Assembly (NCBI GenBank): GCA_963770895.1
Contig: CAVYRF010000001.1
Span: 384,001-448,000 of the forward strand
Length of the DNA: 64,000 nt
Source of the DNA: an uncultured Acidobacteriota bacterium
Lineage (GTDB): Bacteria; Acidobacteriota; Thermoanaerobaculia; Multivoradales; UBA5704
Reading direction: 5' to 3'
Every line of letters begins with the position of its first letter. Within the stretch, counting starts at the first letter, position 1. Below, piece by piece: positions 23,874 through 38,319 of this stretch. Position numbers and translations under genes: made by a program. The notes beneath the pieces are model-generated. The model did not search any database, had not been told where the DNA came from, and saw nothing but the letters and a program-made list of their open reading frames with translations.

Positions 23874-26555
23874 ATGATACGAGATTCCTGTCGCCGCGGC
23901 CGCCGGCGGGAGCTGGTGGCCGCCGGGGCGTTGGCTGGTCTGTTGCTCGGCGCAGGGCTGCTGTTTGCGCCCGGCGTTTTCACGGTGGCTGGCGTTGCGG
24001 CGGCCGCGGCGCCGTCCAAGGCGGCGGCACCGCCGCAGCCGCCGGTCGGGAGGGTGGAGAAGCTGGCGACGGACCCCACCTACGAGGCGCTGCGCGCGGC
24101 GCGGCCGGACGGGCGGACGGTGGCGGTGCACGGCTTCGCCTTCGAGCGCGACGCCTTCCACATCGAGTTTCAATCGGGCACCGTGCACTTCCTGGCGCCG
24201 GTTGCCGGGCGGACGATCGGCGCCGTGTTCCTCGGCCAGGGGACGCTGCGCCTGAAGCCGGCGTCGGCGGCCGAACGGCGGCAGCTGCAGCTGAACCTGG
24301 GGGCGGGCGCGGACTTCGAGGTGCTCAACGACAGCTTCGACCAGATGGTGCTGCTGTTCGGCGACGACACCGATGCCGAGATCAGCCAGGCGGGGCCGAT
24401 CGAGCAGCACGCTCCCGACGCCCAGGCCAGGCAGGTGTACGAGCGGTGGCTGGAACGCCAGCGGCGCGATTTTCATCGCAATTTGCAGGTGCGGCTGCTG
24501 CGCCACCTGCTCAACCATCCCGGCCTGACCAGCGGCGTCTTCCTGGCCCTGGTGCAGGGCAAGACCCTGCCGCCGGCGCTGCTGGCCGTCGATCCCGACG
24601 GCGCCGGCCAGCTCCTGGGCGTTGGCCGGTTTGGCCGCGAGCACACGCTGCTCGACGTGGTGGACCCGCATTCCACGGGCATCTGGTATCTGTCCGACAG
24701 CGCCGCCGAGATCGCGTCGGGCCGCCGTCCACCGGTGGCGGCCGCCGCCAGGGCGCTGCACTATTGGGTGGCGACGACGGTCGGCCGCTCGACCGACCTG
24801 GCCGGCCTGACCACGATCGAGCTGCGGGTGCTGGCGCCCGGCCTGCGGGTGCTCCCCATCGACTTGATGCCCAAGCTGCGCATCGCCTCCGCCAGCTATG
24901 GCGAGCTGCCGGCGGCGGCTGCCGCGGCGCCCGGCGCCGATACGGCCGACCATCCGGCGGAGCCGGCCGAGCCGGTGGTGATCAAGAACGTGGCGGTGGT
25001 GCAGGAGGACGCCAACGGGGACGGCGGCGACGCCGCGGTGATCTTCCCCGAACCGCTGGCCAAGGGCGCGCTCGTCCAGCTCCGCATCGCCTACCAGGGA
25101 GACGGCGTGCTGCGGGACGCCGGCGAAAAGAACTACTACGTCACGTCGCGCGAGCGCTGGTACCCCAACATCGGCACGTTCGAAGACCCCGCGCTCTACG
25201 ACCTGGTCTACCGCGTGCCCGCCGGCAACCAGGTGGTGTCGGTGGGCCACAAGGTCAGCGATCAGACCGCCGGCGACCAGGACGTGTCGGCATGGACGAC
25301 CGGGCCGGTGCGTGTCGCCGGCTTCAACTACGGCAAGTTCAAAAGCGTCGAGCGCCGCGACGAGACGAGCGGCATCGACGTCCAGGTCTTCACCAATCCC
25401 GGCACCCCCGACGCCCTGCGGGAGCTCAATAGAATGATGGCCAGCTCCGGCAACCGCGAGCTGGCCCGCATGGGCAACGACGATCCCGGCATCTACAACG
25501 CGGCGCCGCAGGCGACCCTGGGCAACATCAGCACCGGCCGCCTGGCGGAGTCGGCCCTGGCCGACGGCATCAATTCGGCGCGCGTCTACTACGCCTACTT
25601 CGGGCCGCCGGCGGTCAAGCAGGTGGCCATCACCCAGCAGTCAGAAGCTAGTTCCGGGCAATCGTGGCCGTCGCTGATCTTCATGCCCTACCTGTCCTTC
25701 CTGGACGGCACCCAGCGCCAGCGCATCGGCCTGGGCAACCGCGGCATGGTGGATTTCGTCGATCGCGTGGGGTATCACGAGTTCGCCCACCAGTGGTGGG
25801 GGCACCTGGTGGCCGCCGCCAGCTACCGCGACGTCTGGCTGGAGGAGGGCTTCGCCGAGTTCTCGTCGGCGCTCGCCATCCAGCATGCCGAGGGCTGGCC
25901 CGCCTACGATCACGCCTGGAGCGAGGCGCGCAAACAGATCTTCGCCACGCGGCCGCACAACGCCGTCGCCCCCATCGACGCCGGACCGATCACCCAGGGC
26001 TTCCGGCTGATCACCGAGCGCACCCCCAGCGCCTACCAGCCGCTGGTCTACGAAAAGGGCGCCTACGTGCTGCACATGCTGCGCATGCTGCAGTGGGACA
26101 GCGCCTCGCCCGCACCCGACCATCGCTTCATCGAAATGATGCACGACTACGCCTCGTCGTTCGCCAACCAGCAGGCGACCACCGCCGATTTCCAGAAGGT
26201 CGTCGAGCGCCACATGGCGCCCACCATGAACGCCACCGGCAACGGCAAGATGGACTGGTTCTTCAAGCAGTGGGTCTACGGCACCGCGGTGCCCCGCCTG
26301 ACCGCCGACCTGCACCTGCAGCCCGCCGGCGACCAGGTCCACATCACCGGCAAGGTCACGCAAGCCGAAGTCCCCGCCGACTTCCGCTCCCTGGTGCCCC
26401 TCTACCTCAACCTGGACAAGGGCGAAGTAGTGCGCGTCGGCCTGCTGCCGATGGTCGGCAGCGTCACGGTGCCGGTCGACGTCACCGTCAAATCCCCCAA
26501 GCCCGCCCGCGGCGTCAGCATCAACGCCCACAGCGAGGTGCTCGCCCGCGAGTGA
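23874..26555 (+). CDS. Secreted M1-family zinc aminopeptidase
   Basis: Signal peptide; HEFAHQWWG...WLEEGFAEF (HExxH-x18-E); YEKGAYVLHMLR. Confidence 0.92.
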   Translation: MIRDSCRRGRRRELVAAGALAGLLLGAGLLFAPGVFTVAGVAAAAAPSKAAAPPQPPVGRVEKLATDPTYEALRAARPDGRTVAVHGFAFERDAFHIEFQSGTVHFLAPVAGRTIGAVFLGQGTLRLKPASAAERRQLQLNLGAGADFEVLNDSFDQMVLLFGDDTDAEISQAGPIEQHAPDAQARQVYERWLERQRRDFHRNLQVRLLRHLLNHPGLTSGVFLALVQGKTLPPALLAVDPDGAGQLLGVGRFGREHTLLDVVDPHSTGIWYLSDSAAEIASGRRPPVAAAARALHYWVATTVGRSTDLAGLTTIELRVLAPGLRVLPIDLMPKLRIASASYGELPAAAAAAPGADTADHPAEPAEPVVIKNVAVVQEDANGDGGDAAVIFPEPLAKGALVQLRIAYQGDGVLRDAGEKNYYVTSRERWYPNIGTFEDPALYDLVYRVPAGNQVVSVGHKVSDQTAGDQDVSAWTTGPVRVAGFNYGKFKSVERRDETSGIDVQVFTNPGTPDALRELNRMMASSGNRELARMGNDDPGIYNAAPQATLGNISTGRLAESALADGINSARVYYAYFGPPAVKQVAITQQSEASSGQSWPSLIFMPYLSFLDGTQRQRIGLGNRGMVDFVDRVGYHEFAHQWWGHLVAAASYRDVWLEEGFAEFSSALAIQHAEGWPAYDHAWSEARKQIFATRPHNAVAPIDAGPITQGFRLITERTPSAYQPLVYEKGAYVLHMLRMLQWDSASPAPDHRFIEMMHDYASSFANQQATTADFQKVVERHMAPTMNATGNGKMDWFFKQWVYGTAVPRLTADLHLQPAGDQVHITGKVTQAEVPADFRSLVPLYLNLDKGEVVRVGLLPMVGSVTVPVDVTVKSPKPARGVSINAHSEVLARE

Positions 26556-26672
26556 AGCTCATGGGAGCCGCGACTTACGTGCTAAGCTGCGCCAACCAGC
26601 TCTTACAGCAGGTATGCGTCTCGGACACGAGAGTGCAGCGGCCCACCGGTCGCGGAGGAGTTTTGGCGCCAG

Positions 26673-27200
26673 ATGCGCAAATGGCTTGCAACCCTAGCAG
26701 GGGCGATGATCAGCGGGGTGGTAGTTTGGTACTTGACCAACGCCACCAGCATTCAAAATCTGGCGAGGAAGCCCGCTGACCCTGCCGGAGCTGAAAGAGG
26801 CGCGACGGCCATGGTACCCGCGCCTTCCCCAGCTCCCCAGCCCATCGAGCCTCCCCATGAAGTCTCGCCGCCCACGGACCCCGGCAAGGCAATCGCCACA
26901 AGACCGCGCGACAAGGGGGCGAGGGAACGGTTCTCCCGAAGCTTGACGCTGCATGACGGCGAACAGGAGGTTCTCCTCGACGGCCAGGCTTCCATTGGGG
27001 CTGACTTCACCGCCGTCGGCGGACTTAGAGTGGCAACCCTGCATGTGGGTTCCCCGGGAAAGGAAATCTCCAACCATGCGATCCTCAGTGCCGGCGAGCG
27101 CTTTGAGATCCATGCTTCGGGGCGGAACTATTACGTGTATGTCACCAAGCTCGATCTCGCGGCCATGACCATGCAGGTTACCATCGAAGAACAGCTTTGA
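26673..27200 (+). CDS. Hypothetical membrane-anchored protein
   Basis: N-terminal TM, Pro-rich linker, beta-rich C-terminus; visibly more A/T at third codon positions than the flanks. Confidence 0.7.
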   Translation: MRKWLATLAGAMISGVVVWYLTNATSIQNLARKPADPAGAERGATAMVPAPSPAPQPIEPPHEVSPPTDPGKAIATRPRDKGARERFSRSLTLHDGEQEVLLDGQASIGADFTAVGGLRVATLHVGSPGKEISNHAILSAGERFEIHASGRNYYVYVTKLDLAAMTMQVTIEEQL

Positions 27201-27219
27201 GCCTTATGGGGAAAGGACT

Positions 27220-28194
27220 ATGCGCCACTTTCGCGGAATATTGGTGACACTGATTGTCTTCGCTCTGCTCTCGATGACCGCACGGCGGGCGGCGGCCCAG
27301 AAAGGTCTCTACCAAGGCATCGACAGCTTGGCGGCCGCCATCCTTGAGAAAGTAACGCAGGAACAGAAACATAGAGTCGCCGTCCTTCCCTTCCACGAGA
27401 TGACCGGCCGCACGAGCGTTCTCGACTCTTATCTTTCGGAAGCCCTGCTGACCGAGCTGGTCCGCGCCGGCAAGGTCGAAGTTATCGAGCGCGCCATGCT
27501 CGATCGGTTGCTCGGCGAGATCAAGCTCGGCCAGACAGGGATCATTGACTCGGAGACGGCCAGGCGGGTCGGCAAGGTGGCGGGAGTCGACGCGATCGTA
27601 ACCGGCACAATTACGGAGCTGCGCACTTACCTTGCGGTGAACTGCCGCCTCATCGACACCCAGACGGGCCAGGTGTTTGCCGCGGCGCAAACCTGGATCA
27701 ACAAAGACAGCGACGTGATGGCCTTGCTGAACCAGCGCGACTCCGGCGGAGCGGAGCCGGCGACCGCTGAACGAGAACCGTCGAAAAAGACCGTGCCCAT
27801 TGCGCCGCCTCCGCTGCCACAAGCCGTCATCGAGCGCGATTGCATATTCCAATTAAAGGGCTGCACCCTCTTTGGTTCAACGCTCAAATGCGACATCCTC
27901 ATTACCGACAAGGGAGTCGACAGGACGCTAATCTTTGGCAAAAACGACCGCACAAGGATTATCGACGACAGCGGCCGAGAATATCGCGGCATTTCGTTTT
28001 CGATTGGCTCGCACAGCAACGACTACGCAGCACGAGGAAGTCTCACGACGGATGTTCCGATCAGGGGACAGCTTCAATTCGGCGGCTTGAGCGCGGCAGT
28101 ACGGAAGCTGTCGCTGCTTGAGTTTCACTACACCATGGACTACAACCATGGCATCTATAGCGGAGTAATCAGGTTTACAAACATCGCTCTCTGA
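27220..28194 (+). CDS. Secreted FlgO/CsgG-like domain protein
   Basis: Signal peptide; RVAVLPF...LSEALLTELV...VIERAMLDRLLGE...GKVAGVDAIVTGTI...RLIDTQTG. Confidence 0.8.
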   Translation: MRHFRGILVTLIVFALLSMTARRAAAQKGLYQGIDSLAAAILEKVTQEQKHRVAVLPFHEMTGRTSVLDSYLSEALLTELVRAGKVEVIERAMLDRLLGEIKLGQTGIIDSETARRVGKVAGVDAIVTGTITELRTYLAVNCRLIDTQTGQVFAAAQTWINKDSDVMALLNQRDSGGAEPATAEREPSKKTVPIAPPPLPQAVIERDCIFQLKGCTLFGSTLKCDILITDKGVDRTLIFGKNDRTRIIDDSGREYRGISFSIGSHSNDYAARGSLTTDVPIRGQLQFGGLSAAVRKLSLLEFHYTMDYNHGIYSGVIRFTNIAL

Positions 28195-28262: not shown

Positions 28263-29273
28263 TCAGCACGAGTAGACGAGCCGGGCGATCACGGCATCCC
28301 AGGCGCGGCTCACGGCCAGCAGGTGCGCGGGCTGCTGCTCGGCGGGGGTGATGCCGCTGCGCACGTGGTCGACCAACCGATGCAGCGCAACGCGATTGGC
28401 CTGGTCGCGCTGCCACCAGAAAAACGCCCCCACGGTCGGCGGGGGGGATGCCGGTGCCAGGTCCGTCCAGGCAGGCAAGGCATTCACGCCGGCGCTGGCC
28501 GCTCCCGTGGCGATGGCGCCTCCCAGCGCTGCGATGGCAGGGATCCAGAGGACCGGACCGCTGGCCTCGCCCAGGAAGAGTGTCCCTTCTTCGAAGGTCG
28601 CCGTGACGCGATGGCTCACCCAGGCGCCGGAGCCGTCGTCGTCGGCCGTATCGAGGCGCAGGCACTGCAACGTGATGGCCACGCCGGCGACAGAGCCGTC
28701 GATGGACAGCAGCGGCATGTCTGACGGCGCGGCGGCGTCCGTCGCGGCGCCATGCAACCGCAGCGCCGCGAGCCCGCCCAGTGCCCGGGCGATCAGGTCG
28801 AGGCCCGAGTAGAGAGCGCGCGAATTGGTGGCCAGCGACAGGTGGCGGAGGCGCGTGCGCTGGCGCAGGGCGGCACAATGGGCGAGGAACCGCTGCGGCA
28901 GCTCGCAGTCCCCGTAGTGGGAGTTGACGTGCAGGACGAGGCGCCGGCCGACCGCCTCACCGAGGAGCGCCGCGAGCGCCGCCTCGGTCAGCGGGTGCTC
29001 GATCAGCACGTGGGCGCCGCGGCGGAGGAAGCCCAGGGCCAGGTCGCAGCCGGCTTGGCCGCTCACCGCGACGCAGGCCAGATCGACGCTGCCCGCCGGC
29101 ACCTGCCGCGGCTCCCGATAGAGCGGCACACCGAGCTGGGAGGCCAGGTGCCGCGACCGCTCCGAGCCGCGGGCGAGCAGGCCGACGAGCCGCAGCCCGT
29201 CCGGGTGCGGCCAGGGGCTGAGGGCGCGCAGGTAGGCCGAGCCGTACAGCGTGCCGCAGAGGAGGACCCGCAT
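28263..29273 (-). CDS. Thiazolinyl imine reductase-like oxidoreductase (Irp3/YbtU/PchG type, Gfo/Idh/MocA fold)
   Basis: RVLLCGTLYG..YL, GLLARGSERSR.LA..LGVPLY, DLACVAV, HVLIEHPL, HVNSHY, LYSGLDL, GPVLW. Confidence 0.85.
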   Translation of the reverse strand: MRVLLCGTLYGSAYLRALSPWPHPDGLRLVGLLARGSERSRHLASQLGVPLYREPRQVPAGSVDLACVAVSGQAGCDLALGFLRRGAHVLIEHPLTEAALAALLGEAVGRRLVLHVNSHYGDCELPQRFLAHCAALRQRTRLRHLSLATNSRALYSGLDLIARALGGLAALRLHGAATDAAAPSDMPLLSIDGSVAGVAITLQCLRLDTADDDGSGAWVSHRVTATFEEGTLFLGEASGPVLWIPAIAALGGAIATGAASAGVNALPAWTDLAPASPPPTVGAFFWWQRDQANRVALHRLVDHVRSGITPAEQQPAHLLAVSRAWDAVIARLVYSC

Positions 29274-29296
29274 GGCGCTCTCGGTGGCGGTGCCGC

Positions 29297-30046
29297 TCAG
29301 GCCGGCAGGCCGGCACACGCCAGGTAGACCGCGTCCTCCTCGCCCGCCGGCAGGTCGAGGAGCCGGTTGACCTCCTGGTCCAGGAAGCCGCCGATCACCA
29401 CTGCCGCCAGGTCCATGGCGGTCGCGACCAGGCAGAGGTTCTGGCCGACGTGGCCGGCCTCGAGCCAGACGTAGCGGTAACCACGCTGGCCGTATTTCCA
29501 GGTGGTGCGCGCAAAGATCGCGGTCAGGCAGACAAACAGGTTGGCGTCGCGCAGCAGATCCTGCCCCAGCGCCAGGTTGGCAAGCTCGGCGTGCAGCGCG
29601 CCGCGCCGGCGCAGTGCGAGCTGGTGCGTCCAGGGGTCGTAATGGTAGAGCCCGTCGGCGAGCCCCTCCACGCGCTGCGCGGCGACGTAGAGCTCCAGCG
29701 GGTGCAGGGCGCCGGCCGAAGGGAACGGGCGGTCGTCCGCCACCGCGCCCTCGACCTGCAACATGCCCTTGACCCCGAATGCGGCGTGCAGCAGGCGACC
29801 CAGGGTCGCGAGCGGCAGCTCTCCCTGCCGGAAGTCGCGCCGCGAGCGCCGGCCGGCCAGGGTCTCGCCGAGCGGCCGCGGGAGAGCGAAGTCGCGGCCG
29901 GAAAGCTGCACGCGCTCGGCACCCAGGTAGAGGCGCCGCTGCCCAGGGCGATCCTGCCCGGCTGCGAGATCCGGCAGCTTGGCGCGGCTGTTCGAGGAGT
30001 TGAGGTGGTAGAGGCGGGCGAGATCCACTTCGCGGGTGCTGGGCAT
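29297..30046 (-). CDS. SagB/ThcOx-family FMN-dependent azoline dehydrogenase
   Basis: LYHLNS, RRSRRDF, PSAGALHPLE, WKYGQRGYRY, EAGHVGQN; alternative start at 30067 overlapping the YcaO stop. Confidence 0.93.
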   Translation of the reverse strand: MPSTREVDLARLYHLNSSNSRAKLPDLAAGQDRPGQRRLYLGAERVQLSGRDFALPRPLGETLAGRRSRRDFRQGELPLATLGRLLHAAFGVKGMLQVEGAVADDRPFPSAGALHPLELYVAAQRVEGLADGLYHYDPWTHQLALRRRGALHAELANLALGQDLLRDANLFVCLTAIFARTTWKYGQRGYRYVWLEAGHVGQNLCLVATAMDLAAVVIGGFLDQEVNRLLDLPAGEEDAVYLACAGLPA

Positions 30047-30066
30047 CGTCGCGTCCCTTCGGGGCA

Positions 30067-32547
30067 TCAGGCGAGGGGGTGCGGCTGGGGATTGACGCCG
30101 CGCGGGCCGAGCAGCGCCGCGAGGCGCGGGTTGGCCAGCCGCCGCAGGCGCTCGCCGAAGTGGATCGGCTGCACGTCGGTGCCTAGCGCCCGGGCGACCC
30201 GGAAGGGACTCAGCGCCACGTCCGGCGAGGTGACGTCGACGATCGCCACCCGCACCCCCGCCGCTGCCAGCCTCTCCGCGCAACCCGCCAGGGTCGGCGC
30301 GGCGGCGACCGGCAGGTCGGCCAGACGCAGCGGCTCGCCGCCGCCCACGCGCAACGTGTCGAGCAGCGGCAGGCGCTCGACAGGCGCGTAGTAGAGGGCA
30401 TGATCGTCGAGGCTCTGCACCTGGTCCGGCGAGGCGGGCGCGCGCTGGCCGCTGCGCATCAGCCCGGCGATGTAGGGGCCGACGTGCGCCAGTTCGAGCA
30501 GCGCCTTGCGCGCCGCCACCTGAGGGTCGACGTGGGTGGCCAGTGCCACCGCTGCGGCGGGCCAGCGCTCGCCGTCGCCCAGGCCCAGGCTCGCCACGGT
30601 CGGGATCCCCAGCCCGACGTCCAGGAGGTAGAGCTCCACGGCGACGCCGCGTTCGCCGAGCAGGCGCACGACCTCGGCCGCCGCCCCTTCGAATCCGCCG
30701 TCGTCGAAGCGCAGCGCGCGCCCGGGCAGCTGGCACAGCCAGCTCAGCATGAAGGCGTCCCGCTCCACCAGCTCGAAGAGAGCCCGCACTGCCGCGTCCT
30801 CGAGATCGCCGCCCGCCGCCAGGCCGTTGGAGGAGACCTGGCAGAAGAGCTCCTCGCGCGGCACCGCGAAGTTGAAGTAGGCCGTCAGCGCCGGCAGCCA
30901 GACCGCTTCCCGGTTGTCGATCCAGAAACCGCGCACCCAATGCTGGGGTCGGTCGGGGTCGAAGCGCGCGAACGGGAAGTCGGGTTCCTCGTAACGGCTC
31001 TCCTCGTAGAGGCAGAGCCGGCGGGGGTCGAGGGCCAGGTCGCCCAGCTCGTTGAACGACGCCACTTTCAGGTCCTGCTTGCGGTAGCGGGACGCCGAAT
31101 AGCGCTCGATCGCCTCGCCTGCCGCGCTCAACATCGCCTCGACCTCGGTGAGCCCCTTGCCCGAGCCGACCGGCGGGTCCGGGATGCCGCGCACCCGCCC
31201 ACCCTCCGTGTAGGCCGCGAGGATCGCCGTTGCCGTCCGCGGCAGCTCCGGCAAGGAGGGATCGGCCGGGTGCGCCTGGCCACAGGCCAGGGCGCGCAGG
31301 ACACCGGTGCGTGGATCGACCCATCCTGCGAGGAGCGCCTGCAGCTCCGCGACGCTCTGCACGCGCGCCAGGCTGCCCGAGGGGCCGGGCTGGCCCGGCC
31401 GGCCATCCTGGCCCGCCGCTGCCGGCGGTGCGACGGCGCCCCCCGGATTGCGGGAATCCTGCGCAGCCCCGCCGCAAACGTGGCACCAGGGCATCCTGAC
31501 CACCCCGTGGTGCGTGACGTCGGTTGTGATCAGGTTGTGGACGATGACGCGCCCTTGCAGGTGCGAGTGGGTGAAGGTGGTGAGCAGCTTCAGCGCTTCG
31601 ATGGCCATCAGCTGGCCGGCCACCGGCGCCATGGGCGCCAGGTAGCTGCGCGCGCGGCGCGCGGCCGGCGCTGCCACCAGCGACGCGTCGACCTCGTGCG
31701 CGACGAGAGGATGGTCGGCGGCGCCCAGGCGGCGCAGGCGGAAGCAATTCCAGCAGGCGGTCTGGCCGGGTACGACGGCCGGCCCGATCCAGGCTTCGAA
31801 GCCTTCGAGATGGCCGTACAACGAGCGCACGCCGACGCGGTGAGCGTACTCGGCCGCTTGCTGCAACCAGAACAGATCGTCGGCGGTGAGGCCGGTGACG
31901 ATCAGGTCCCAGGCGCCACCGGCCGGGCCGGGAGCGGCGGCAGGGCCGTCCCCGCGCAGGCATTCCAGGCTTTCCGCGCTCACCGCGCACCGGGGTGCGA
32001 CGTCGCGCACCAGCTCCCGTATCACCTCACGGCGCAAACGGCCGCGATGGTGCGGGCGCAGCAGGCGTACCGCCAGCAGGTCGTCGGGCTCCACGGTGGC
32101 ATCGTCCAGCAGGTGCAGCGCACCGACGCCGGCAGCGGCCAGCTCGCACGCGGCCACCGCTCCCCACGGCTCGAGCCCGACCAGTAAGACCCGGGCCTGG
32201 CGCAGGCCCTCGCCGGCCTCGGCGGGGGCGAGGCCGACGCCCTGGAAGAATCGCTCCTGGGCTGCGCCGGCGGCTTCGGGCTCACCGGCGGTATCCGCCG
32301 CCGATTCGACGAGCCCCTTCTGGCGCAGCAGCTCGAGAAGGCCGTGCACGCTTGCCGGCGAGTAGCCGGGCAAGGCTCCGGCCACCTCGTCGAGATCGCG
32401 GCTGCCGTCGAGCAGCGGCAGCAGCTGGCTGACAAAGACGCTGATATCGGGGCCGTCGAGCTGGAAGCTCCCGAGGTCCGACCGAAGGACCACCGCCTGC
32501 GCCATGGGCGTGATGCTGGCGGACGGGCTCAGGCGTACCTTGCTCAT
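30067..32547 (-). CDS. Fused RRE/E1(ThiF-like)-YcaO azoline-forming cyclodehydratase (TOMM C-D fusion)
   Basis: N-terminal RRE-like region (LLPLLDGSR..DEV...LLELLRQKGLVE); IGPAVVPGQTACWNC; PWCHVCG; GSGKG; EAIERY; SSNGLAAG; ELVERD; C-terminal PQPHPLA; alternative GTG start at 32559. Confidence 0.95.
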   Translation of the reverse strand: MSKVRLSPSASITPMAQAVVLRSDLGSFQLDGPDISVFVSQLLPLLDGSRDLDEVAGALPGYSPASVHGLLELLRQKGLVESAADTAGEPEAAGAAQERFFQGVGLAPAEAGEGLRQARVLLVGLEPWGAVAACELAAAGVGALHLLDDATVEPDDLLAVRLLRPHHRGRLRREVIRELVRDVAPRCAVSAESLECLRGDGPAAAPGPAGGAWDLIVTGLTADDLFWLQQAAEYAHRVGVRSLYGHLEGFEAWIGPAVVPGQTACWNCFRLRRLGAADHPLVAHEVDASLVAAPAARRARSYLAPMAPVAGQLMAIEALKLLTTFTHSHLQGRVIVHNLITTDVTHHGVVRMPWCHVCGGAAQDSRNPGGAVAPPAAAGQDGRPGQPGPSGSLARVQSVAELQALLAGWVDPRTGVLRALACGQAHPADPSLPELPRTATAILAAYTEGGRVRGIPDPPVGSGKGLTEVEAMLSAAGEAIERYSASRYRKQDLKVASFNELGDLALDPRRLCLYEESRYEEPDFPFARFDPDRPQHWVRGFWIDNREAVWLPALTAYFNFAVPREELFCQVSSNGLAAGGDLEDAAVRALFELVERDAFMLSWLCQLPGRALRFDDGGFEGAAAEVVRLLGERGVAVELYLLDVGLGIPTVASLGLGDGERWPAAAVALATHVDPQVAARKALLELAHVGPYIAGLMRSGQRAPASPDQVQSLDDHALYYAPVERLPLLDTLRVGGGEPLRLADLPVAAAPTLAGCAERLAAAGVRVAIVDVTSPDVALSPFRVARALGTDVQPIHFGERLRRLANPRLAALLGPRGVNPQPHPLA

Positions 32548-32618
32548 AGGCGGGCTCACATCCAGAATGCATTCCCCGGCCGGCGTGACCGGTAGGCTTC
32601 CTGGACCGTTTCGCGGCG

Positions 32619-32652
32619 GGCCCGCGCGCCGATCCAGGGTTGCGCGCGGGCC
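32619..32652 (-). terminator. GC-rich stem-loop between the precursor and cyclodehydratase genes (stabiliser or partial terminator)
   Basis: Perfect 11-bp inverted repeat GGCCCGCGCGC-N12-GCGCGCGGGCC; no U-tract on the transcribed strand. Confidence 0.55.
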
Positions 32653-32682
32653 GTGTTTCTCACCGTGAGGATACTTCGGACC

Positions 32683-33135
32683 TCACTTGGAGGACGAGCA
32701 TTGAGCGCACGGGGTGCACTGGGCGCACGGCGTACATGGGGTGCACTGGGCGGCGTACTGCGTACATGGGGTGCACTGGGCGGTGCACTGCGTACATGGA
32801 GTGCACTGGGTGGTGCACGGCGTACAAGCGGTGCACGGCGCGCACAGGGGGGTCGCATGGGCCTGGTAACAGGGCTGGCAATTGACGCAGTTCTGACACA
32901 GCGCTTGGATGCACGAATTGCAGAGAATGCAGGCGGGAGGAGTGCATGTGAGGCACGGTGGGTGACACGGCCAGCACGCCGCTACCCAACACGGGTGCGC
33001 GACCACGCAGGGCTTCTGGGTCGCCTGCGTCAACGCGTCGACCTTATGTTGCAGGCCGTTGACCGCAGCGTGCAGCTCGGTCAGGACAACATGAAGATCC
33101 TTGGGAGGGTTTGGATCGTGGGGCTCATCGGCCAT
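32683..33135 (-). CDS. Cys-rich RiPP (TOMM/LAP) precursor peptide, 150 aa, 28 Cys
   Basis: AGGAG RBS; 42-aa Cys-free leader with an amphipathic helix; core of C-x2/x3-C repeats; first gene of the YcaO operon. Confidence 0.88.
   Translation of the reverse strand: MADEPHDPNPPKDLHVVLTELHAAVNGLQHKVDALTQATQKPCVVAHPCWVAACWPCHPPCLTCTPPACILCNSCIQALCQNCVNCQPCYQAHATPLCAPCTACTPCTTQCTPCTQCTAQCTPCTQYAAQCTPCTPCAQCTPCAQCSSSK
32731..32826. repeat. 30-bp coding tandem repeat (3 copies plus a partial) in the precursor core
   Basis: Units start cgtaca at 32731, 32761, 32791 and 32821; they encode QYAAQCTPCT, QCTAQCTPCT and PCTTQCTPCT. Confidence 0.9.
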
Positions 33136-33282
33136 TCGATTTCTCCTGAACCACGGGTAAGTGGACGTCACACCAGCCACGCCGGCCGGGAAATGGGCAG
33201 CCTTGGGACAGTCGTATCGTGGGCTTCGGCTGTTGCCGCACAGCCGGCCCAAGGCGTTTAAAGAGCTGAAGGTAACAATCGG

Positions 33283-33311
33283 ATTATAGCAAAAGCAGCG
33301 ATACCGCTCAA
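33283..33311 (-). promoter_or_regulatory. Sigma70 promoter of the RiPP operon
   Basis: TTGAGC-N17-TATAAT with extended -10 (TGc) in an AT-rich patch, ~148 nt upstream of the precursor ATG. Confidence 0.8.
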
Positions 33312-33369: not shown

Positions 33370-34836
33370 CTACGGCTTGGGCGGCAGCGATTGCGATGCG
33401 GCCTGGATGGCGCGCTCGAGCAGCTCGTCGCGGCCGGCGGCGATCCCCTGGCGGGTGGGAGCGACGGGGATCGTGGGGAGGATGCCGACGCCGTGGTGGC
33501 GCGAGCCGTCCTGTTTGTCGACCCGCATGCCCGTCCAATGGATGCGATAGCCACCGGGCAGGGTAAAGGGGTTCACGTCGCCGTTGGTGCCGGCGGTCGG
33601 GCCGCCGACGATCTCTCCCAGGTGGTAGTGCTCGACGATCCCCATGCAGCTCTCGGCGTAGCTGATGGCGCGGCCGTCGGTCACGAACACCAGGCGCGCC
33701 GTGAGCCGGACCGGGAGTGGCTCCAAGGTCCAGGCGCTTTCCCAATAGGTCACCCCCTGGCGGTCGGGGCGGATGGTGACCGGTATGCGCCAGCGCGCCG
33801 AGTGGAAGGTCTCGCCCACCAGGTGCTGCAGGAAGAGCGGCGAGAGCGTCGGATAGCCGCGAAAGTCGATCACGATGGCGCGCGCCTTCGCCAGGCGGTC
33901 GAGCGCCGCGGTGAAGTCCTGGTCCTGGATTCGCTGCACGTCGAGATACATCACGCCCGGAGCCACCTCGGCGATCGGGGCCGGGCGTCGCTCCGCGATC
34001 GCGCCGGGACCCTGGATCGGCAGCGAACGGTCGACGGTCACCGTCGCCGTCTCGCCGGTCAGGTGAGCGACCGACAGCCGCACGCTCGCCGACGGCCCCC
34101 TGAGCAGCCGCTCCACGGAGACGTACCGCAGAAACTGCGGCGTGGCAGCCGACGTCAGCTCCTGCTCGGCGGCAATCACCTCGGCTGCCGGACGGCCGTC
34201 GATCGCCGTCACGACGTCGCCGGGCTGGATGCCGGGGGCGTGCGCCGCATCGACCGCGGTCACCACCAGCTGCCCTTCGACCCAGCTCCAAGAGAGCGGC
34301 AGATGGAACGTCGCGGAGGTGGCGGAGATCAGGGTGACCAGGCCGTGGCCGTCGTGCAGCGCCGCGACCATCCGCCGCAAGGTATCGCGGAAAGCTACCG
34401 CGTCGCGATCAGTCGCGGCGCCACGCAAAGCCCGCCGCAGCTCCGCCGGCCAATCCGTCCCCGTCACGTCGAAATAGGGGTAGAAGTGCTGGAAGACATT
34501 CCAGGCCAGGATTACGTCGGCAAGCCGCGTCGCGCGATCGTCGCCCGAAGGGAAGAATCCGTCCGGCTTCTCGGGTGCCGGCGCCAGCACCCCGGCCGGC
34601 ACCTCCGGCAGCGTCCCCTTTTCATCGGCATAGAGCGTCAGCGGCACCGCCGCCGACACGCCGCCGCCCAGATCGACAGTCACCGGCTTGCCAGGCGGCG
34701 GCCAGTCGAGCGCCAGAGGCTTGCCATCCGGGTAGGTCTGCGGCCCCGTCACGTCGACGCGCTCGCTCAGGTAGAGCCCGCGCGCCACGTCCATGCCGGC
34801 ACCGACCCCGAAGTGGCGCCATCCCAGGACGCGCAC
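33370..34836 (-). CDS. S41-family peptidase with PDZ domain, apparently lacking its N-terminus
   Basis: WNVFQHFYPYF, L.DGHG, PDZ (PGDVVTAIDG), IDFRGYP, AISYAES, TAGTNG, HGVGILP; no signal peptide or clear start. Confidence 0.82.
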   Translation of the reverse strand: MRVLGWRHFGVGAGMDVARGLYLSERVDVTGPQTYPDGKPLALDWPPPGKPVTVDLGGGVSAAVPLTLYADEKGTLPEVPAGVLAPAPEKPDGFFPSGDDRATRLADVILAWNVFQHFYPYFDVTGTDWPAELRRALRGAATDRDAVAFRDTLRRMVAALHDGHGLVTLISATSATFHLPLSWSWVEGQLVVTAVDAAHAPGIQPGDVVTAIDGRPAAEVIAAEQELTSAATPQFLRYVSVERLLRGPSASVRLSVAHLTGETATVTVDRSLPIQGPGAIAERRPAPIAEVAPGVMYLDVQRIQDQDFTAALDRLAKARAIVIDFRGYPTLSPLFLQHLVGETFHSARWRIPVTIRPDRQGVTYWESAWTLEPLPVRLTARLVFVTDGRAISYAESCMGIVEHYHLGEIVGGPTAGTNGDVNPFTLPGGYRIHWTGMRVDKQDGSRHHGVGILPTIPVAPTRQGIAAGRDELLERAIQAASQSLPPKP

Positions 34837-35003
34837 CTTTCCCGGTGGCGCGGCCAGCAGCTCCGCAGGGATGGGTCTGGGCAGGTTCGCAGAGGTTGCG
34901 CCGGGGGTGGGGCCGATGGCGGGCCGGCTCCGCTTCGGGCTCCGCTGCCGCGGACGCGAGGCCGCCCCGCCGCCGACGCTATCTGAGCGGCGGGACCGAG
35001 CGC

Positions 35004-36134
35004 ATGGAGCAATACCTGTCGGCGGCGCGGGAGCATGTCTCCCGGCGCTGCGCGGCGGATCGCGAGTGGCTCTACCGCAAACCCTTCGACGCCAATGCCG
35101 GCAATGCTGCGTTCTTCGACGAGATGTACTCGGTGATGAACCTGCTGCGGGCGATGGCCATCACGCCCGGCGGCAGGGTGCTCGAAGTCGGCAGCGGCCC
35201 CGGATGGGTGACCGAGATCCTGCTGGCGTTGGGTTATGAGGTCCATGCCCTCGAACCCAGCGAGGAGATGATCGCGATCGCCGCCGAGCGCGTCGCGGCC
35301 GCCCGCGGTCATTTCCATCTCGGCGACAGCCCGCCCGTCACCTTCCACGCCGAACCGCTCGAAACCTGCTCGCTTCCCAGCGAAGCCTATGACGCGGTGC
35401 TCTTCCATGCCTCGCTGCACCATGTCGTGGACGAAGATCGCGGCCTGGCCCAGTGTTTCCGCCTGCTGCGGCCGGGCGGCGTCCTGGGAGCGAGCGAAGG
35501 GGCCTGGATCCCCGGCGACCGCAAGCTGGAAGCCCAGCTCGACCAGGAGATGCAGCGCTTCGGCACACTCGAAAACCCCTACACCGTGGAATACCTCGAC
35601 TTCCTGCTCCGCCGCCACGGCTTCGTGGACGTTCGGCGCTACTTTGCCGTCAACGGCCTGCTGCCAGAGGCGATGGGGCGCCGCCCGGTGGCCGCGGTCG
35701 CCACCTCCCGTCCCTGGGACGGCAACAACCTGACGGCCCGCAAGCCCTCGCTCCATCGCGCCACCACCCTCGACGGCGGCACCGCCCGAACGCGCGCCCG
35801 GATCACCGTATTGGCGACCACCCTCGATCGACCCACCGGCGCCGCCCACCTCCAGGTGCGCCTGGCCAACCGCGGCGACACGGCCTGGCTGGCAAACGCT
35901 CCGCGCGTGGGTTGGGTGGCCGTCGCCCTGCGCCAGGGCGAACCGGGCAGCCCCGATCTCGTCGAGGCGGGCGGCCGCCACCCCCTGCCGCGCACCCTGG
36001 CCCCCGGCGAACAGATCGTCCTCGACCTCGACTTCCGCCTGCCTCCCGCACGCGCCGCCGGCCCCTGGCTTCTCGATCTCGTGAACGAAGGCATGTTCTG
36101 GTTCTCCGAGCGCGGCAGCCCGCCGTCCCCGTGA
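35004..36134 (+). CDS. Class I SAM-dependent methyltransferase with C-terminal Ig-like domain
   Basis: VLEVGSGPGW, YDAVLFHASLHH, LRPGG; C-terminal VRLANRGDTAW...LAPGE...LDLVNEGMFWF. Confidence 0.88.
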   Translation: MEQYLSAAREHVSRRCAADREWLYRKPFDANAGNAAFFDEMYSVMNLLRAMAITPGGRVLEVGSGPGWVTEILLALGYEVHALEPSEEMIAIAAERVAAARGHFHLGDSPPVTFHAEPLETCSLPSEAYDAVLFHASLHHVVDEDRGLAQCFRLLRPGGVLGASEGAWIPGDRKLEAQLDQEMQRFGTLENPYTVEYLDFLLRRHGFVDVRRYFAVNGLLPEAMGRRPVAAVATSRPWDGNNLTARKPSLHRATTLDGGTARTRARITVLATTLDRPTGAAHLQVRLANRGDTAWLANAPRVGWVAVALRQGEPGSPDLVEAGGRHPLPRTLAPGEQIVLDLDFRLPPARAAGPWLLDLVNEGMFWFSERGSPPSP

Positions 36135-36170: not shown

Positions 36171-38048
36171 TCAGCTACAGGGCAACGCCGCTGTGTCCTG
36201 CACCGGTGCCGCGGCGGTGCCGTCCGTGTTGGCGTAGGACTTGTGAGCGCCGGTCTGCAGGTCGGTCACCACGGCGGTGAAGCCGACGTTGGTGCCGGCG
36301 GCGTAGAACAGCCAGTATTTCTGGTTGACGCTGCAGCCGTCGATGACCTTGATCAGCATCTCCGGGTTGTCGGCGCTGAAGAACCAGAAGAGACCGCCCT
36401 GCGCAACGCCCAGGCTGTTGAGGGCGATCGCGTGGCCGTTGCCCGCGCTGCCGCCGCCCTCCGCGGTCTTGTAGCTGGCCGTGATCTGAAAACGGCCATT
36501 GATGCACAGAGTGGTGCCGTTGGCGGTACAGGTGGCGGCCTCGGGCAAGGCATCGATCGCGGTCGGCGGGGGGCTCTGCTCGGCGCTCGCGGGGCGCCGG
36601 TCGCCCGCTTCGAGGTGGGCGCTGGTCGCCGCGGCGACGTCGCCAGCGGCGGCGTCTGGAGCAGCGGGCGCGGCGTCTCCCTGGGCGTCGCACGTGAAGG
36701 CGGCGGTGTCCTGTTGCGGCGGCGCGGCGGTCTCGTCGGTGTTCTGGTAGGTCTTGGTGCGAGGAGTCTTGGTGTCCTTGACGCTGACGGTGAAGCCGAC
36801 GTTGGTGGTCGCCGAGTAGAACAGCCAGAAATGTTGGTTGACCGAGCAGCCGTTGATGACCTTGATCAGCATCTCCGGGTTGTCGGCGTCAAAGAACCAG
36901 AACAGGCCACCTTCGGTGACGCCCAGGCTGGCGAGCGGGATCGCCTGGCCGTTGCCGGCGAGCCCGCCGCTCTGCGCCGTCTTGTAGGCGACGCCGATCT
37001 GCCAGCGCTTGTCGCCCGGCTTGTCGTCGATGCACAGGGTTGTCGCCGTCGCCACGCAAGCCGCGTTGTGGGGCAGTTCCACACGGCCCACCTTGTTGCC
37101 GCTCACCTCGGTGAACCACATGTTGCCGTCGGGCCCGGCGGTGATGCCGCCCGGACTGGAGTGCGCCGTGGGCACCGGATACTCCGTGACCTTGCCGGCG
37201 GTGGTCACCATGCCGATCTGATTGGCCTCGAACTCGGTGAACCAGAGGTTGCCATCGGGTCCGGCGGTGATGAAAACGCTACCCGCCGTCGAGGTCGGCA
37301 GCGGAAACTCGGTGATCACGCCCGCCGGGGTGATGCGCCCTAGGTTGTTGCCGGAGAGCTCGGTGAACCAGACATTGCCGTCGGGGCCGAGGGTGATCCC
37401 GGTTGGCGCGGGTTGGGCGCCGGCGTCGGGTAGCGCGAACTCGTGGAAGACGCCGGCCGTCGTGAGCCGCCCGACCTTGCCGGTGTTCTGCTCGGTGAAC
37501 CAGAGGTTGCCGTCGGCTCCCACCGTGATGCCGGCGGGTCCGGCGCCGCCGGTCGGCACGGCGAACTCCTTGCACGCGCCGGCGGTCGTGATGCGTCCGA
37601 TCTTGCTACCGTTGAGCTCGGTGAACCAGAGGTTGCCGTCGGGGCCGGCCACGATGTCCGCCGGTCCGGCCTGAGAGGTGGGTACGTCGAAGAGCGTCAC
37701 GGCGCCGGCGGTCGTGATGCGTCCGATCTGATTGCCTTCGTAGGCCGCGAACCACAGATTGCCGTCGGGCCCCGCCGTGATGCCGCCCGAAACCGGGCTC
37801 GACAGCGCGCTCGCGACCGGAAACTGATTGACCACCGTGCCGGCGGTGGTGATGCGGCCGACGGCGTTGCCCTCGAGCTCGGTGAACCAGAGGTCGCCGT
37901 CCGGACCGGCGGCGATGCCGGCCGGCGACACGCCGCTCGTCGGTACCGGAAACTCGTTGATCGTGATGGCGCCGGCGGGCGCCGCCGCGAGGGTCGCCAG
38001 GATGACTGCGAACACCGCCGCACGGATGTCGTCGCTGAAGGTTGCCAT
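36171..38048 (-). CDS. Secreted Vgb (virginiamycin B lyase)-like beta-propeller with two tandem lineage-type C-terminal domains
   Basis: Signal peptide; 7 repeats of GITAGPDGNLWFTE..GNxIGRIT; 2x TLCI...GLFWFF.ADNPEMLIKVI.GCSVNQ..WLFY. Confidence 0.88.
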   Translation of the reverse strand: MATFSDDIRAAVFAVILATLAAAPAGAITINEFPVPTSGVSPAGIAAGPDGDLWFTELEGNAVGRITTAGTVVNQFPVASALSSPVSGGITAGPDGNLWFAAYEGNQIGRITTAGAVTLFDVPTSQAGPADIVAGPDGNLWFTELNGSKIGRITTAGACKEFAVPTGGAGPAGITVGADGNLWFTEQNTGKVGRLTTAGVFHEFALPDAGAQPAPTGITLGPDGNVWFTELSGNNLGRITPAGVITEFPLPTSTAGSVFITAGPDGNLWFTEFEANQIGMVTTAGKVTEYPVPTAHSSPGGITAGPDGNMWFTEVSGNKVGRVELPHNAACVATATTLCIDDKPGDKRWQIGVAYKTAQSGGLAGNGQAIPLASLGVTEGGLFWFFDADNPEMLIKVINGCSVNQHFWLFYSATTNVGFTVSVKDTKTPRTKTYQNTDETAAPPQQDTAAFTCDAQGDAAPAAPDAAAGDVAAATSAHLEAGDRRPASAEQSPPPTAIDALPEAATCTANGTTLCINGRFQITASYKTAEGGGSAGNGHAIALNSLGVAQGGLFWFFSADNPEMLIKVIDGCSVNQKYWLFYAAGTNVGFTAVVTDLQTGAHKSYANTDGTAAAPVQDTAALPCS

Positions 38049-38319
38049 AGCGCTCGTCTCCAAGGTCCTCGTGGAGGGGAATACCTGGTTGGCGACCTCG
38101 AGAGTTCGCCGCGGTTGACGCGAAGCAACGTCAAGGTAACACACGGTGCCCGGCCCGGCGTGGCGAGGCAAAGGGTGCGCCTGCCGGCTGCGGTGATGGC
38201 GGCGAGCTGGCCGGTTTTGAAGCGGCTTCAGGACCGGAGGCTCCGCCAGCAGACGCTGCCCGCCAGCTGGTGGCCAGGTGGGCGTCGGGATCGGTGGGCT
38301 CTCGGCCTACGCTTGCGCT

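Follow-up and report, generated by a model that had tools for sequence, protein, structure and literature searches.

Four consecutive genes on the minus strand, at positions 28263 to 33311 of a 64,000-nucleotide (nt) stretch of an uncultured Acidobacteriota genome (assembly GCA_963770895.1, contig CAVYRF010000001.1, positions 384,001 to 448,000; the whole stretch is referred to as the window), encode, in order, a cysteine-rich precursor peptide, a cyclodehydratase in which an E1-like part is fused to a YcaO domain (E1-YcaO), a SagB-type dehydrogenase, and a reductase related to those of siderophore biosynthesis. The window has a G+C content of about 70%, and the operon lies on contig C1 of the 8.16-Mb, three-contig host genome. 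Its features are as follows:

33283..33311, minus strand: putative promoter, TTGAGC-17 nt-TATAAT with a TG extension (extended -10), resting on a match to a sigma-70-like consensus only (10/12)
32683..33135, minus strand: precursor gene, 150 amino acids (open reading frame with its ATG 7 nt past aggaga)
32711..32836, no strand assigned: tandem DNA repeat within the precursor core, period 30 nt, 4.3 copies, 86% matches, score 168
30067..32547, minus strand: fused E1-like/leader-binding and YcaO cyclodehydratase, 826 amino acids (TIGR03604, TIGR03882, PF02624, PF00899)
29297..30067, minus strand: SagB-type flavin mononucleotide (FMN) dehydrogenase of the azoline oxidase type, 256 amino acids (TIGR03605)
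28263..29273, minus strand: Irp3-like NAD(P)-dependent reductase with a Gfo/Idh/MocA fold, 336 amino acids (TIGR01761, PF21390)

The original prediction, made from the letters of the window, had placed four co-oriented genes here behind one promoter, and this layout holds: all four are on the minus strand, and a promoter-like site at 33311-33283 precedes the precursor ATG by about 150 nt. A consensus scan of the region returned three promoter-like sites, against a mean of 0.2 in shuffled sequences, and terminator-like sites 3' of the reductase are not enriched (2 found versus 1.8 expected in shuffles). The stop codon of the YcaO gene overlaps the ATG of the SagB gene as TGATG, and the reductase ATG lies 23 nt past the SagB stop, the same spacing that had been read earlier.

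All three enzymes score above the curated cut-offs of their families. E1-YcaO passes both TIGR03604 (235.5 bits; cut-off, 219.25) and TIGR03882 (85.3 bits; cut-off, 36.9), the latter over residues 247-421, and also matches PF02624 (228 bits) and PF00899 (ThiF, 63 bits), with its YcaO domain at residues 436-826. The start at 32547 is set by the sequence MSKVRLSPSAS and is conserved among relatives; the open reading frame list had the protein begin at a GTG at 32559, giving 830 amino acids. The C-terminus, NPQPHPLA, fits the PxPxP motif that we take to be a mark of azoline-type YcaO proteins, as had been expected of this enzyme. Its closest relatives of solved structure are LynD (E = 1.1e-36), TruD and MusD, with E values ranging to 1.1e-27. 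The dehydrogenase, likewise anticipated as SagB, scores 155.3 bits against TIGR03605 (cut-off, 78.4); its first match among solved structures is an uncharacterized nitroreductase, followed by the cyanobactin oxidase CyaGox (E = 6.6e-18), and McbC is also matched. Judged from sequence, an azoline-type YcaO, a fused E1-like partner, SagB and an adjacent leader-bearing, Cys-rich precursor make this a cluster of the thiazole/oxazole-modified microcin (TOMM) or linear azol(in)e-containing peptide (LAP) type.

The precursor is as rich in Cys as had been claimed, with 28 Cys among its 150 residues. A 42-residue leader without Cys (PKDLHVVLTELHAAV...K) precedes a 108-residue core holding all 28, and 18 of the 27 gaps from one Cys to the next equal 3, mostly as CxxC. 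The 30-nt tandem repeat in the core encodes a 10-residue CTPCTQCTAQ-like unit. The gene is single copy in the host genome, and its product has no family match in Pfam or NCBIfam at E values up to 0.01. The leader is kept in five sister loci, and the motif K-[DE]-L-x-[IV]-x-[ILV]-T-[EAQ]-L is common to all 15 precursors that are readable beside the Thermoanaerobaculia and gammaproteobacterial reductases described below. In each of these 15, 22-31% of the core residues are Cys, with 3 as the prevailing spacing, and the peptides differ chiefly by insertions or deletions (indels) between CxxC units. Precursors of Thermoanaerobaculia have 127-157 residues with 24-35 Cys, and those of Gammaproteobacteria have 235-511 residues with 46-131 Cys. 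The longest, from Pseudoalteromonas aurantia (L032:5950-7485, plus strand; 511 amino acids, 131 Cys), is composed largely of dozens of tandem CAQCYQCAPQ- or CAQCFQCATQ-like units, and its size is far above that of usual precursors of ribosomally synthesized peptides with post-translational modifications (RiPPs).

The last gene of the operon sets the cassette apart. The original prediction had recognized in its Gfo/Idh/MocA-fold product the Irp3/PchG-type motifs CGTxYG, RGSxRS, EHP and NxxY, all of which are present (as LCGTLYG, ARGSERS, EHP and NSHY). When thiazolinyl and generic dehydrogenase models are compared, the protein passes TIGR01761, the thiazolinyl imide reductase family, at E = 2.3e-60 (205 bits against a cut-off of 188.8), the match covering positions 5-338 of the 350 in the profile, and the second-best NCBIfam family reaches 22.5 bits only. 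The Irp3-like C-terminal domain PF21390 is matched with 35.3 bits against a cut-off of 27, and the Rossmann domain PF01408 is also found. In a sequence search of the PDB at E values up to 0.001, two distinct sequences match, both Irp3/YbtU (E = 2.4e-29). With an AlphaFold2 model built from 12 sequences (mean predicted local distance difference test score, 86.3), the 10 best Foldseek matches are all Irp3 chains (TM, 0.80-0.83; E, about 1e-24), and the first sugar dehydrogenase follows at E = 3e-14, 10 orders of magnitude worse. By sequence and by fold, the enzyme thus groups with Irp3/YbtU and not with sugar dehydrogenases.

The EHP histidine is present in 23 of 23 aligned rows, and the window protein retains the tyrosine of NxxY; the Irp3 structure papers reportedly proposed His101 and Tyr128 as catalytic. 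Reductases linked to YcaO genes are without the 4-residue insert and the C-terminal tail of some 30-40 residues that occur in the clade linked to nonribosomal peptide synthetases (NRPSs), and the motifs DDGS and RDxAN are particular to them. The gammaproteobacterial members score 152-172 bits against TIGR01761, under the cut-off. Reading frames are intact and full length in 17 of 18 related loci, the 18th ending at a contig end, and the host genome has one gene of the TIGR01761 class.

The cassette recurs. Among 60 genomes of relatives, there is one more TIGR01761 match above the cut-off and another at 164.5 bits. The former belongs to four genes identical in kind and order to those of the window; in a second relative, a reductase of 34% identity lies near a different YcaO gene with genes for a methyltransferase, an S53 peptidase and a class-V aminotransferase. 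A pattern scan in which each species was represented by a single genome, and whose query was a four-sequence alignment, yielded 17 loci; the sample is biased to close relatives, as the clade of the window had supplied the search patterns. In all 17, a YcaO gene ends just 5' of the reductase gene; with YcaO also in 49 of 80 metagenome loci (see below), the prospect that homologues never stand beside YcaO is contradicted, and the pairing is not due to chance.

Five of the loci, in other Thermoanaerobaculia, hold precursor, E1-YcaO, SagB and reductase genes, with identities to the window of 40-47% for the precursor, 57-65% for the YcaO domain, 49-65% for SagB and 41-53% for the reductase. When the six Thermoanaerobaculia loci are compared all against all, exactly four genes are common to them, and the flanks are unrelated except in L024 and L025, which are near-identical to each other. 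The operon is therefore bounded at four genes, and it constitutes a self-contained RiPP cassette of a Thermoanaerobaculia (Acidobacteriota) soil bacterium. The sequencing runs listed as sharing sequence words are DNA runs from soil metagenomes, each with a small share, and no RNA run is among them. The other 12 loci are gammaproteobacterial (eight Pseudoalteromonas, Marinomonas spartinae, Algicola, a Methylococcaceae metagenome-assembled genome and another metagenome-assembled genome), and in these the E1-YcaO gene is followed directly by the reductase gene, without SagB; no SagB above the cut-off occurs anywhere in the whole P. citrea and M. spartinae genomes. The reductase is present in 13 of 140 Pseudoalteromonas species genomes, and TIGR01761 at E values up to 1e-20 matched in 0 of 400 other Acidobacteriota and 0 of 399 other Gammaproteobacteria scored, a near-empty wider sampling that reflects the rarity of the family.

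Gammaproteobacterial cassettes often carry an additional gene upstream of the precursor. This gene (L033:5328-6449, plus strand) encodes a conserved protein of 373 amino acids that has no Pfam match, with counterparts in L028, L029, L031, L032, L035, L036 and L040. Of the 12 gammaproteobacterial loci, 8 have this gene, and two of the other four are truncated upstream of YcaO; the genome of the window lacks it. Over its first 50 or so residues the protein is similar to the precursor leader (33% identity across 46 residues, E = 4e-4), and the remainder is near THAP4-like heme-binding beta-barrel proteins in a language-model atlas (score, 0.90). The protein could be a second leader-bearing substrate.

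To place the reductase within its family, 1.84 billion representative proteins were searched, giving 482 clusters at E values up to 0.001 and 78 at E values up to 1e-30. A FastTree phylogeny of 160 rows included 142 of the best 150 representatives (eight of under 280 residues were dropped) and 18 locus proteins. A quick IQ-TREE phylogeny of 99 rows combined the window protein with 85 hand-chosen representatives covering every FastTree clade, 11 of those 18 locus proteins, YbtU encoded on a Klebsiella plasmid and a Streptomyces fusion linked to an NRPS. The last two are placed in one clade of 21 rows (Shimodaira-Hasegawa-like approximate likelihood ratio support, 100), whose members have 354-393 residues or are fused to methyltransferase, thioesterase or kinase domains. 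The window reductase is placed apart from these, in a 27-row group (support, 93) containing the Thermoanaerobaculia and the gammaproteobacterial (support, 100) clades, and the reductase of the second relative falls in a third clade of 22 rows (support, 99). The earlier assignment to the Irp3/PchG type thus stands as regards family model and fold and fails as regards orthology, since the reductase sits in separate, shorter clades. The tree has no outgroup and its deep backbone is poorly supported, so no claim is made about the older context of the family. In two representatives of the clade of the window, the C-terminus of a YcaO or SagB protein precedes the reductase in frame; these are read as adjacency and not as proven fusions because one has a frameshifted tail. 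The fusions within the NRPS clade (P0054, P0101, P0118, P0144, P0140 and P0121) involve a methyltransferase, a thioesterase plus methyltransferase, or an APH-type kinase. Plasmid searches with the subclades P0056 and P0030 returned only distant NRPS-type relatives, with at most 39% identity.

The third clade also accompanies YcaO. A metagenome scan with the alignment of this clade returned 80 loci (L041-L120), of which 49 have YcaO, 46 a methyltransferase, 33 an S53 peptidase and 1 SagB. Among loci in which the reductase is flanked by 5.5 kb or more on each side, YcaO is present in 11 of 11, and each of the 31 loci without a YcaO match ends short on at least one side. A small frame ending in ...SEVPG[FY] lies beside third-clade genes in 14 of 81 loci (the 80 plus L023), and one such frame passes a Nif11-like leader model (51.9 bits; cut-off, 32.3).

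In soil metagenomes (L041-L120 and L023), this widespread cluster combines an Irp3-like reductase, an S53 peptidase, an S-adenosylmethionine-dependent methyltransferase, a mostly stand-alone YcaO and a Nif11-leader precursor, examples of the last being L099:9120-9338 (minus strand) and L116:7502-7720. An adenylation-like gene lies beside YcaO in seven of the third-clade loci.

The chemistry expected of the operon follows from that of the siderophores. In the available parts of the respective sources, NRPS thiazolines are converted to thiazolidines by trans-acting reductases (PMC8842026), thiazolidines are present in yersiniabactin and pyochelin (PMC9811515), and in Irp3, a thiazolinyl imine reductase also by the titles of its PDB entries, hydride transfer comes before protonation (PMC7465668). 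In the proposed pathway, the E1-like part of the fused cyclodehydratase would bind the precursor through its conserved, helical leader, and the YcaO domain would use ATP to cyclize Cys residues of the CxxC core to thiazolines, as expected from its family and from the relatives LynD and TruD. The SagB flavoprotein, in line with its own family, would oxidize part of the thiazolines to thiazoles. The reductase would then deliver hydride from NAD(P)H to other thiazolines, at their C=N bond, to give thiazolidines, a step proposed because of its homology to siderophore thiazolinyl imine reductases and its strict gene linkage to YcaO. We assign a probability of roughly 0.6 to the scheme in which thiazolines made by YcaO are in part oxidized by SagB and in part reduced to thiazolidines by the reductase. 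Membership of the reductase in the ribosomal pathway as such is very probable.

Methylation offers a further parallel. The thiazolidine of pyochelin is N-methylated; methyltransferase domains are fused to many NRPS-clade reductases, and a methyltransferase is a separate neighbor in 46 of the 80 third-clade loci, which counts in favor of the scheme. Several Irp3-related clades might be dedicated to ribosomal peptides, installing azolidine rings together with YcaO on substrates that range from Nif11-type peptides bearing a single conserved site to poly-CxxC chains of up to 131 Cys; this extension is offered tentatively, its odds falling just short of even. The absence of a conserved protease or exporter from the cassette, together with the very long poly-Cys substrates of relatives, leads us to speculate that the product is a metal-binding or redox-buffering modified protein and not a small secreted antibiotic.

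Several observations weigh against thiazolidine formation. An oxidase and a reductase for one type of ring in one operon are unusual and need site selectivity. Pro immediately precedes 12 of the 28 Cys in the window precursor, and Pro-Cys is a poor context for some cyclodehydratases. The NxxY tyrosine is replaced by Phe in the YcaO-linked relatives L024, L033, L037, L038, L040 and L023; if the Tyr of the Irp3 motif NTFY is the general acid, as the Irp3 papers reportedly propose, the mechanism would be partly different in these proteins. As judged from the tree, the window enzyme is a paralogue and not an orthologue of Irp3/PchG, and its substrate, or even the direction of its reaction, could therefore differ. 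Some third-clade precursors have a core without Cys and with only a conserved Ser, which may be the modified residue, and the reductase family may therefore not be specific for thiazolines. Lastly, the host genome has a single clear heterocyclization (Cy) domain (C2:3908234-3909649; 35% identical to Cy1 of HMWP2, with the motif DYLIADAWS).

One alternative is that the reductase is a true tailoring enzyme of the ribosomal pathway that performs some other chemistry; we regard it as unlikely yet the strongest of those weighed. Candidate reactions are the reduction of oxazolines or amidines made by YcaO, a double reduction that opens the ring to a reduced amide and a free thiol, ring opening to a peptide aldehyde, and, in cassettes without SagB, an NAD(P)+-dependent oxidation of thiazoline to thiazole that replaces SagB. 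Its position outside the Irp3/PchG clade, the missing insert and tail, the private DDGS and RDxAN motifs and the Phe of several relatives would all fit such a change of function, as would the Nif11-type precursors of the third clade, with their conserved ...SEVPGF ends and sometimes Cys-less cores, and the lack of SagB in gammaproteobacterial cassettes. However, the characterized enzymes that are closest in both sequence and fold all reduce thiazolines, and Cys dominates the precursors beside the reductases of the window and gammaproteobacterial clades. An oxidase role is further disfavored in the window itself, where SagB is already present and a second oxidase would be redundant.

A second alternative is that the reductase serves an NRPS pathway elsewhere in the genome and neighbors YcaO genes by chance. 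The host genome is extremely rich in NRPS genes: a scan that scored 111 of 297 candidates found at least 113 condensation-domain matches, and open frames extend up to about 12,700 amino acids (for example, in C1:897801-1043000, C2:239876-263401 and C2:3900789-3950153). The genome also has the one clear Cy domain, and its sole TIGR01761-class gene is that of the operon. However, that Cy domain is on contig C2 and the reductase is on C1, and in the sister genomes Cy domains are likewise present but far from the cassette. The operon had been read as free of NRPS genes, and no condensation domain is reported within the window among the 111 of 297 candidates scored, the nearest being at C1:463170, about 15 kb past the window end. 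The M. spartinae genome, which carries a cassette, has no match to the HMWP2 Cy1 query at E values up to 1e-15. At the YbtU and Streptomyces loci, examined as a contrast, the reductase genes have a Cy-domain NRPS context, whereas YcaO is directly upstream in all 17 related loci, and the NRPS-linked reductases form their own clade. Because the reductase gene starts 23 nt behind SagB within the operon, the four-gene unit is kept while its flanks change, and M. spartinae gave no Cy match with that query, service to an NRPS is very improbable, and the earlier proposal that the reductase acts on the ribosomal peptide gains support from the conserved unit and the Marinomonas result.

Least probable of all is that the protein stands outside peptide maturation, whether as a generic Gfo/Idh/MocA dehydrogenase of sugars or other compounds or as a relic without activity: its N-terminal Rossmann domain is common to the whole superfamily and the deep tree backbone is weak, but the full-length TIGR01761 match above the cut-off, the distance to the next NCBIfam model and to sugar dehydrogenases in the fold search, the intact frames of related loci, and the conserved cofactor and EHP motifs all speak against it.

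The reductase shares with Irp3/YbtU of yersiniabactin biosynthesis (PDB 4GMF, 4GMG, 5KVQ and 5KVS) and PchG of pyochelin biosynthesis the PF01408 plus PF21390 architecture, the TIGR01761 assignment and all four motifs, at about 29% identity over the full length, and by analogy it would be expected to use NADPH to reduce the C=N bond of a thiazoline to a thiazolidine. Unlike those enzymes, it is about 30-40 residues shorter, lies outside their clade and has as neighbors a YcaO gene and a ribosomal precursor gene in place of genes for a Cy-domain NRPS, a salicylate synthase and a thioesterase. Its presumed substrate is accordingly a leader-bound peptide and not a carrier-protein thioester.

The remainder of the cassette resembles known ribosomal systems. 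In the available part of the source, the heterocycloanthracin precursors of Bacillus vary by indels of Cys-Xaa-Xaa units (Haft 2009, PMC2674419); as far as that text extends, the heterocycloanthracin/sonorensin TOMM (LAP) family and the cassette share a conserved leader with a core of Cys-Xaa-Xaa units subject to unit indels, a SagB dehydrogenase, and a protein in which docking and cyclodehydratase parts are fused (TIGR03882 plus TIGR03604). Unlike that family, the window precursor has no match to its leader model or to any other NCBIfam model; on the same partial description, the cassette also differs in having the precursor gene within the operon and not far away, in belonging to another phylum, in its additional reductase, and in the cores of its relatives, which reach 485 residues and in some cases occur without SagB. 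The closest solved relatives of E1-YcaO are from cyanobactin pathways, in which LynD, TruD or MusD forms azolines in an ATP-dependent reaction and CyaGox oxidizes them in an FMN-dependent one. Those pathways differ in their PatA/PatG proteases, macrocyclization and short cassette-type cores, none of which is found in the window cassette, and have no counterpart of the reductase.

The LAP/TOMM cluster type is already known and would be flagged by standard tools; what is new is the reductase, together with the ring predicted for it and the poly-CxxC substrates of giant size. The modification had been proposed as one without precedent among characterized RiPPs, and no account of thiazolidines in ribosomal peptides, or of YcaO combined with a thiazolinyl reductase, was found in the literature searched as full text, a scope outside which most subscription journals and supplements fall. 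In the available parts of two reviews, thiazolidines are placed on the NRPS side only (PMC9811515 and PMC8842026), and neither reductase nor thiazolidine occurs as a word in the main text of the TOMM landscape paper of 2015 or of the NHLP/Nif11 paper of 2010.

Thiazole and thiazoline rings typify a large class of natural products of ribosomal origin, and the reduced ring, thiazolidine, has so far come from nonribosomal siderophores. If thiazolidine formation by the cassette is borne out, it would add an enzymatic modification to ribosomal peptide chemistry, and ribosomal and nonribosomal routes would have recruited related reductases for the same ring chemistry. Biotechnology would also gain a leader-guided enzyme with which gene-encoded peptides could be given rings that bind metals and are conformationally distinct. 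On the wider reading, in which several clades are dedicated to ribosomal peptides, the large substrates would become poly-thiazolidine or poly-thiazoline chains, possibly metal-binding polymers. The relatives extend the operon of one uncultured soil bacterium to a family with three architectures, and several of its members occur in culturable marine bacteria; the minimal version, YcaO plus reductase, is carried by cultured Pseudoalteromonas and Marinomonas strains.

The genes that flank the operon in the window are of other kinds. An S41-family peptidase gene (33370-34836, minus strand) adjoins it upstream, with a class I methyltransferase gene (34575-36134, plus strand) divergent from it; both were considered as cluster members and rejected, since the five sister loci lack counterparts of them. 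A CsgG/FlgO-like lipoprotein gene (27220-28194, plus strand) is convergent with the operon end and lies in a stretch of lower G+C content (0.62 for 26001-28000). Farther upstream, positions 36171-38171 (minus strand) encode a secreted-looking protein of 666 amino acids that strongly matches the virginiamycin B lyase-family beta-propeller (PF24684, 388 bits) and has two similar modules at its C-terminus.

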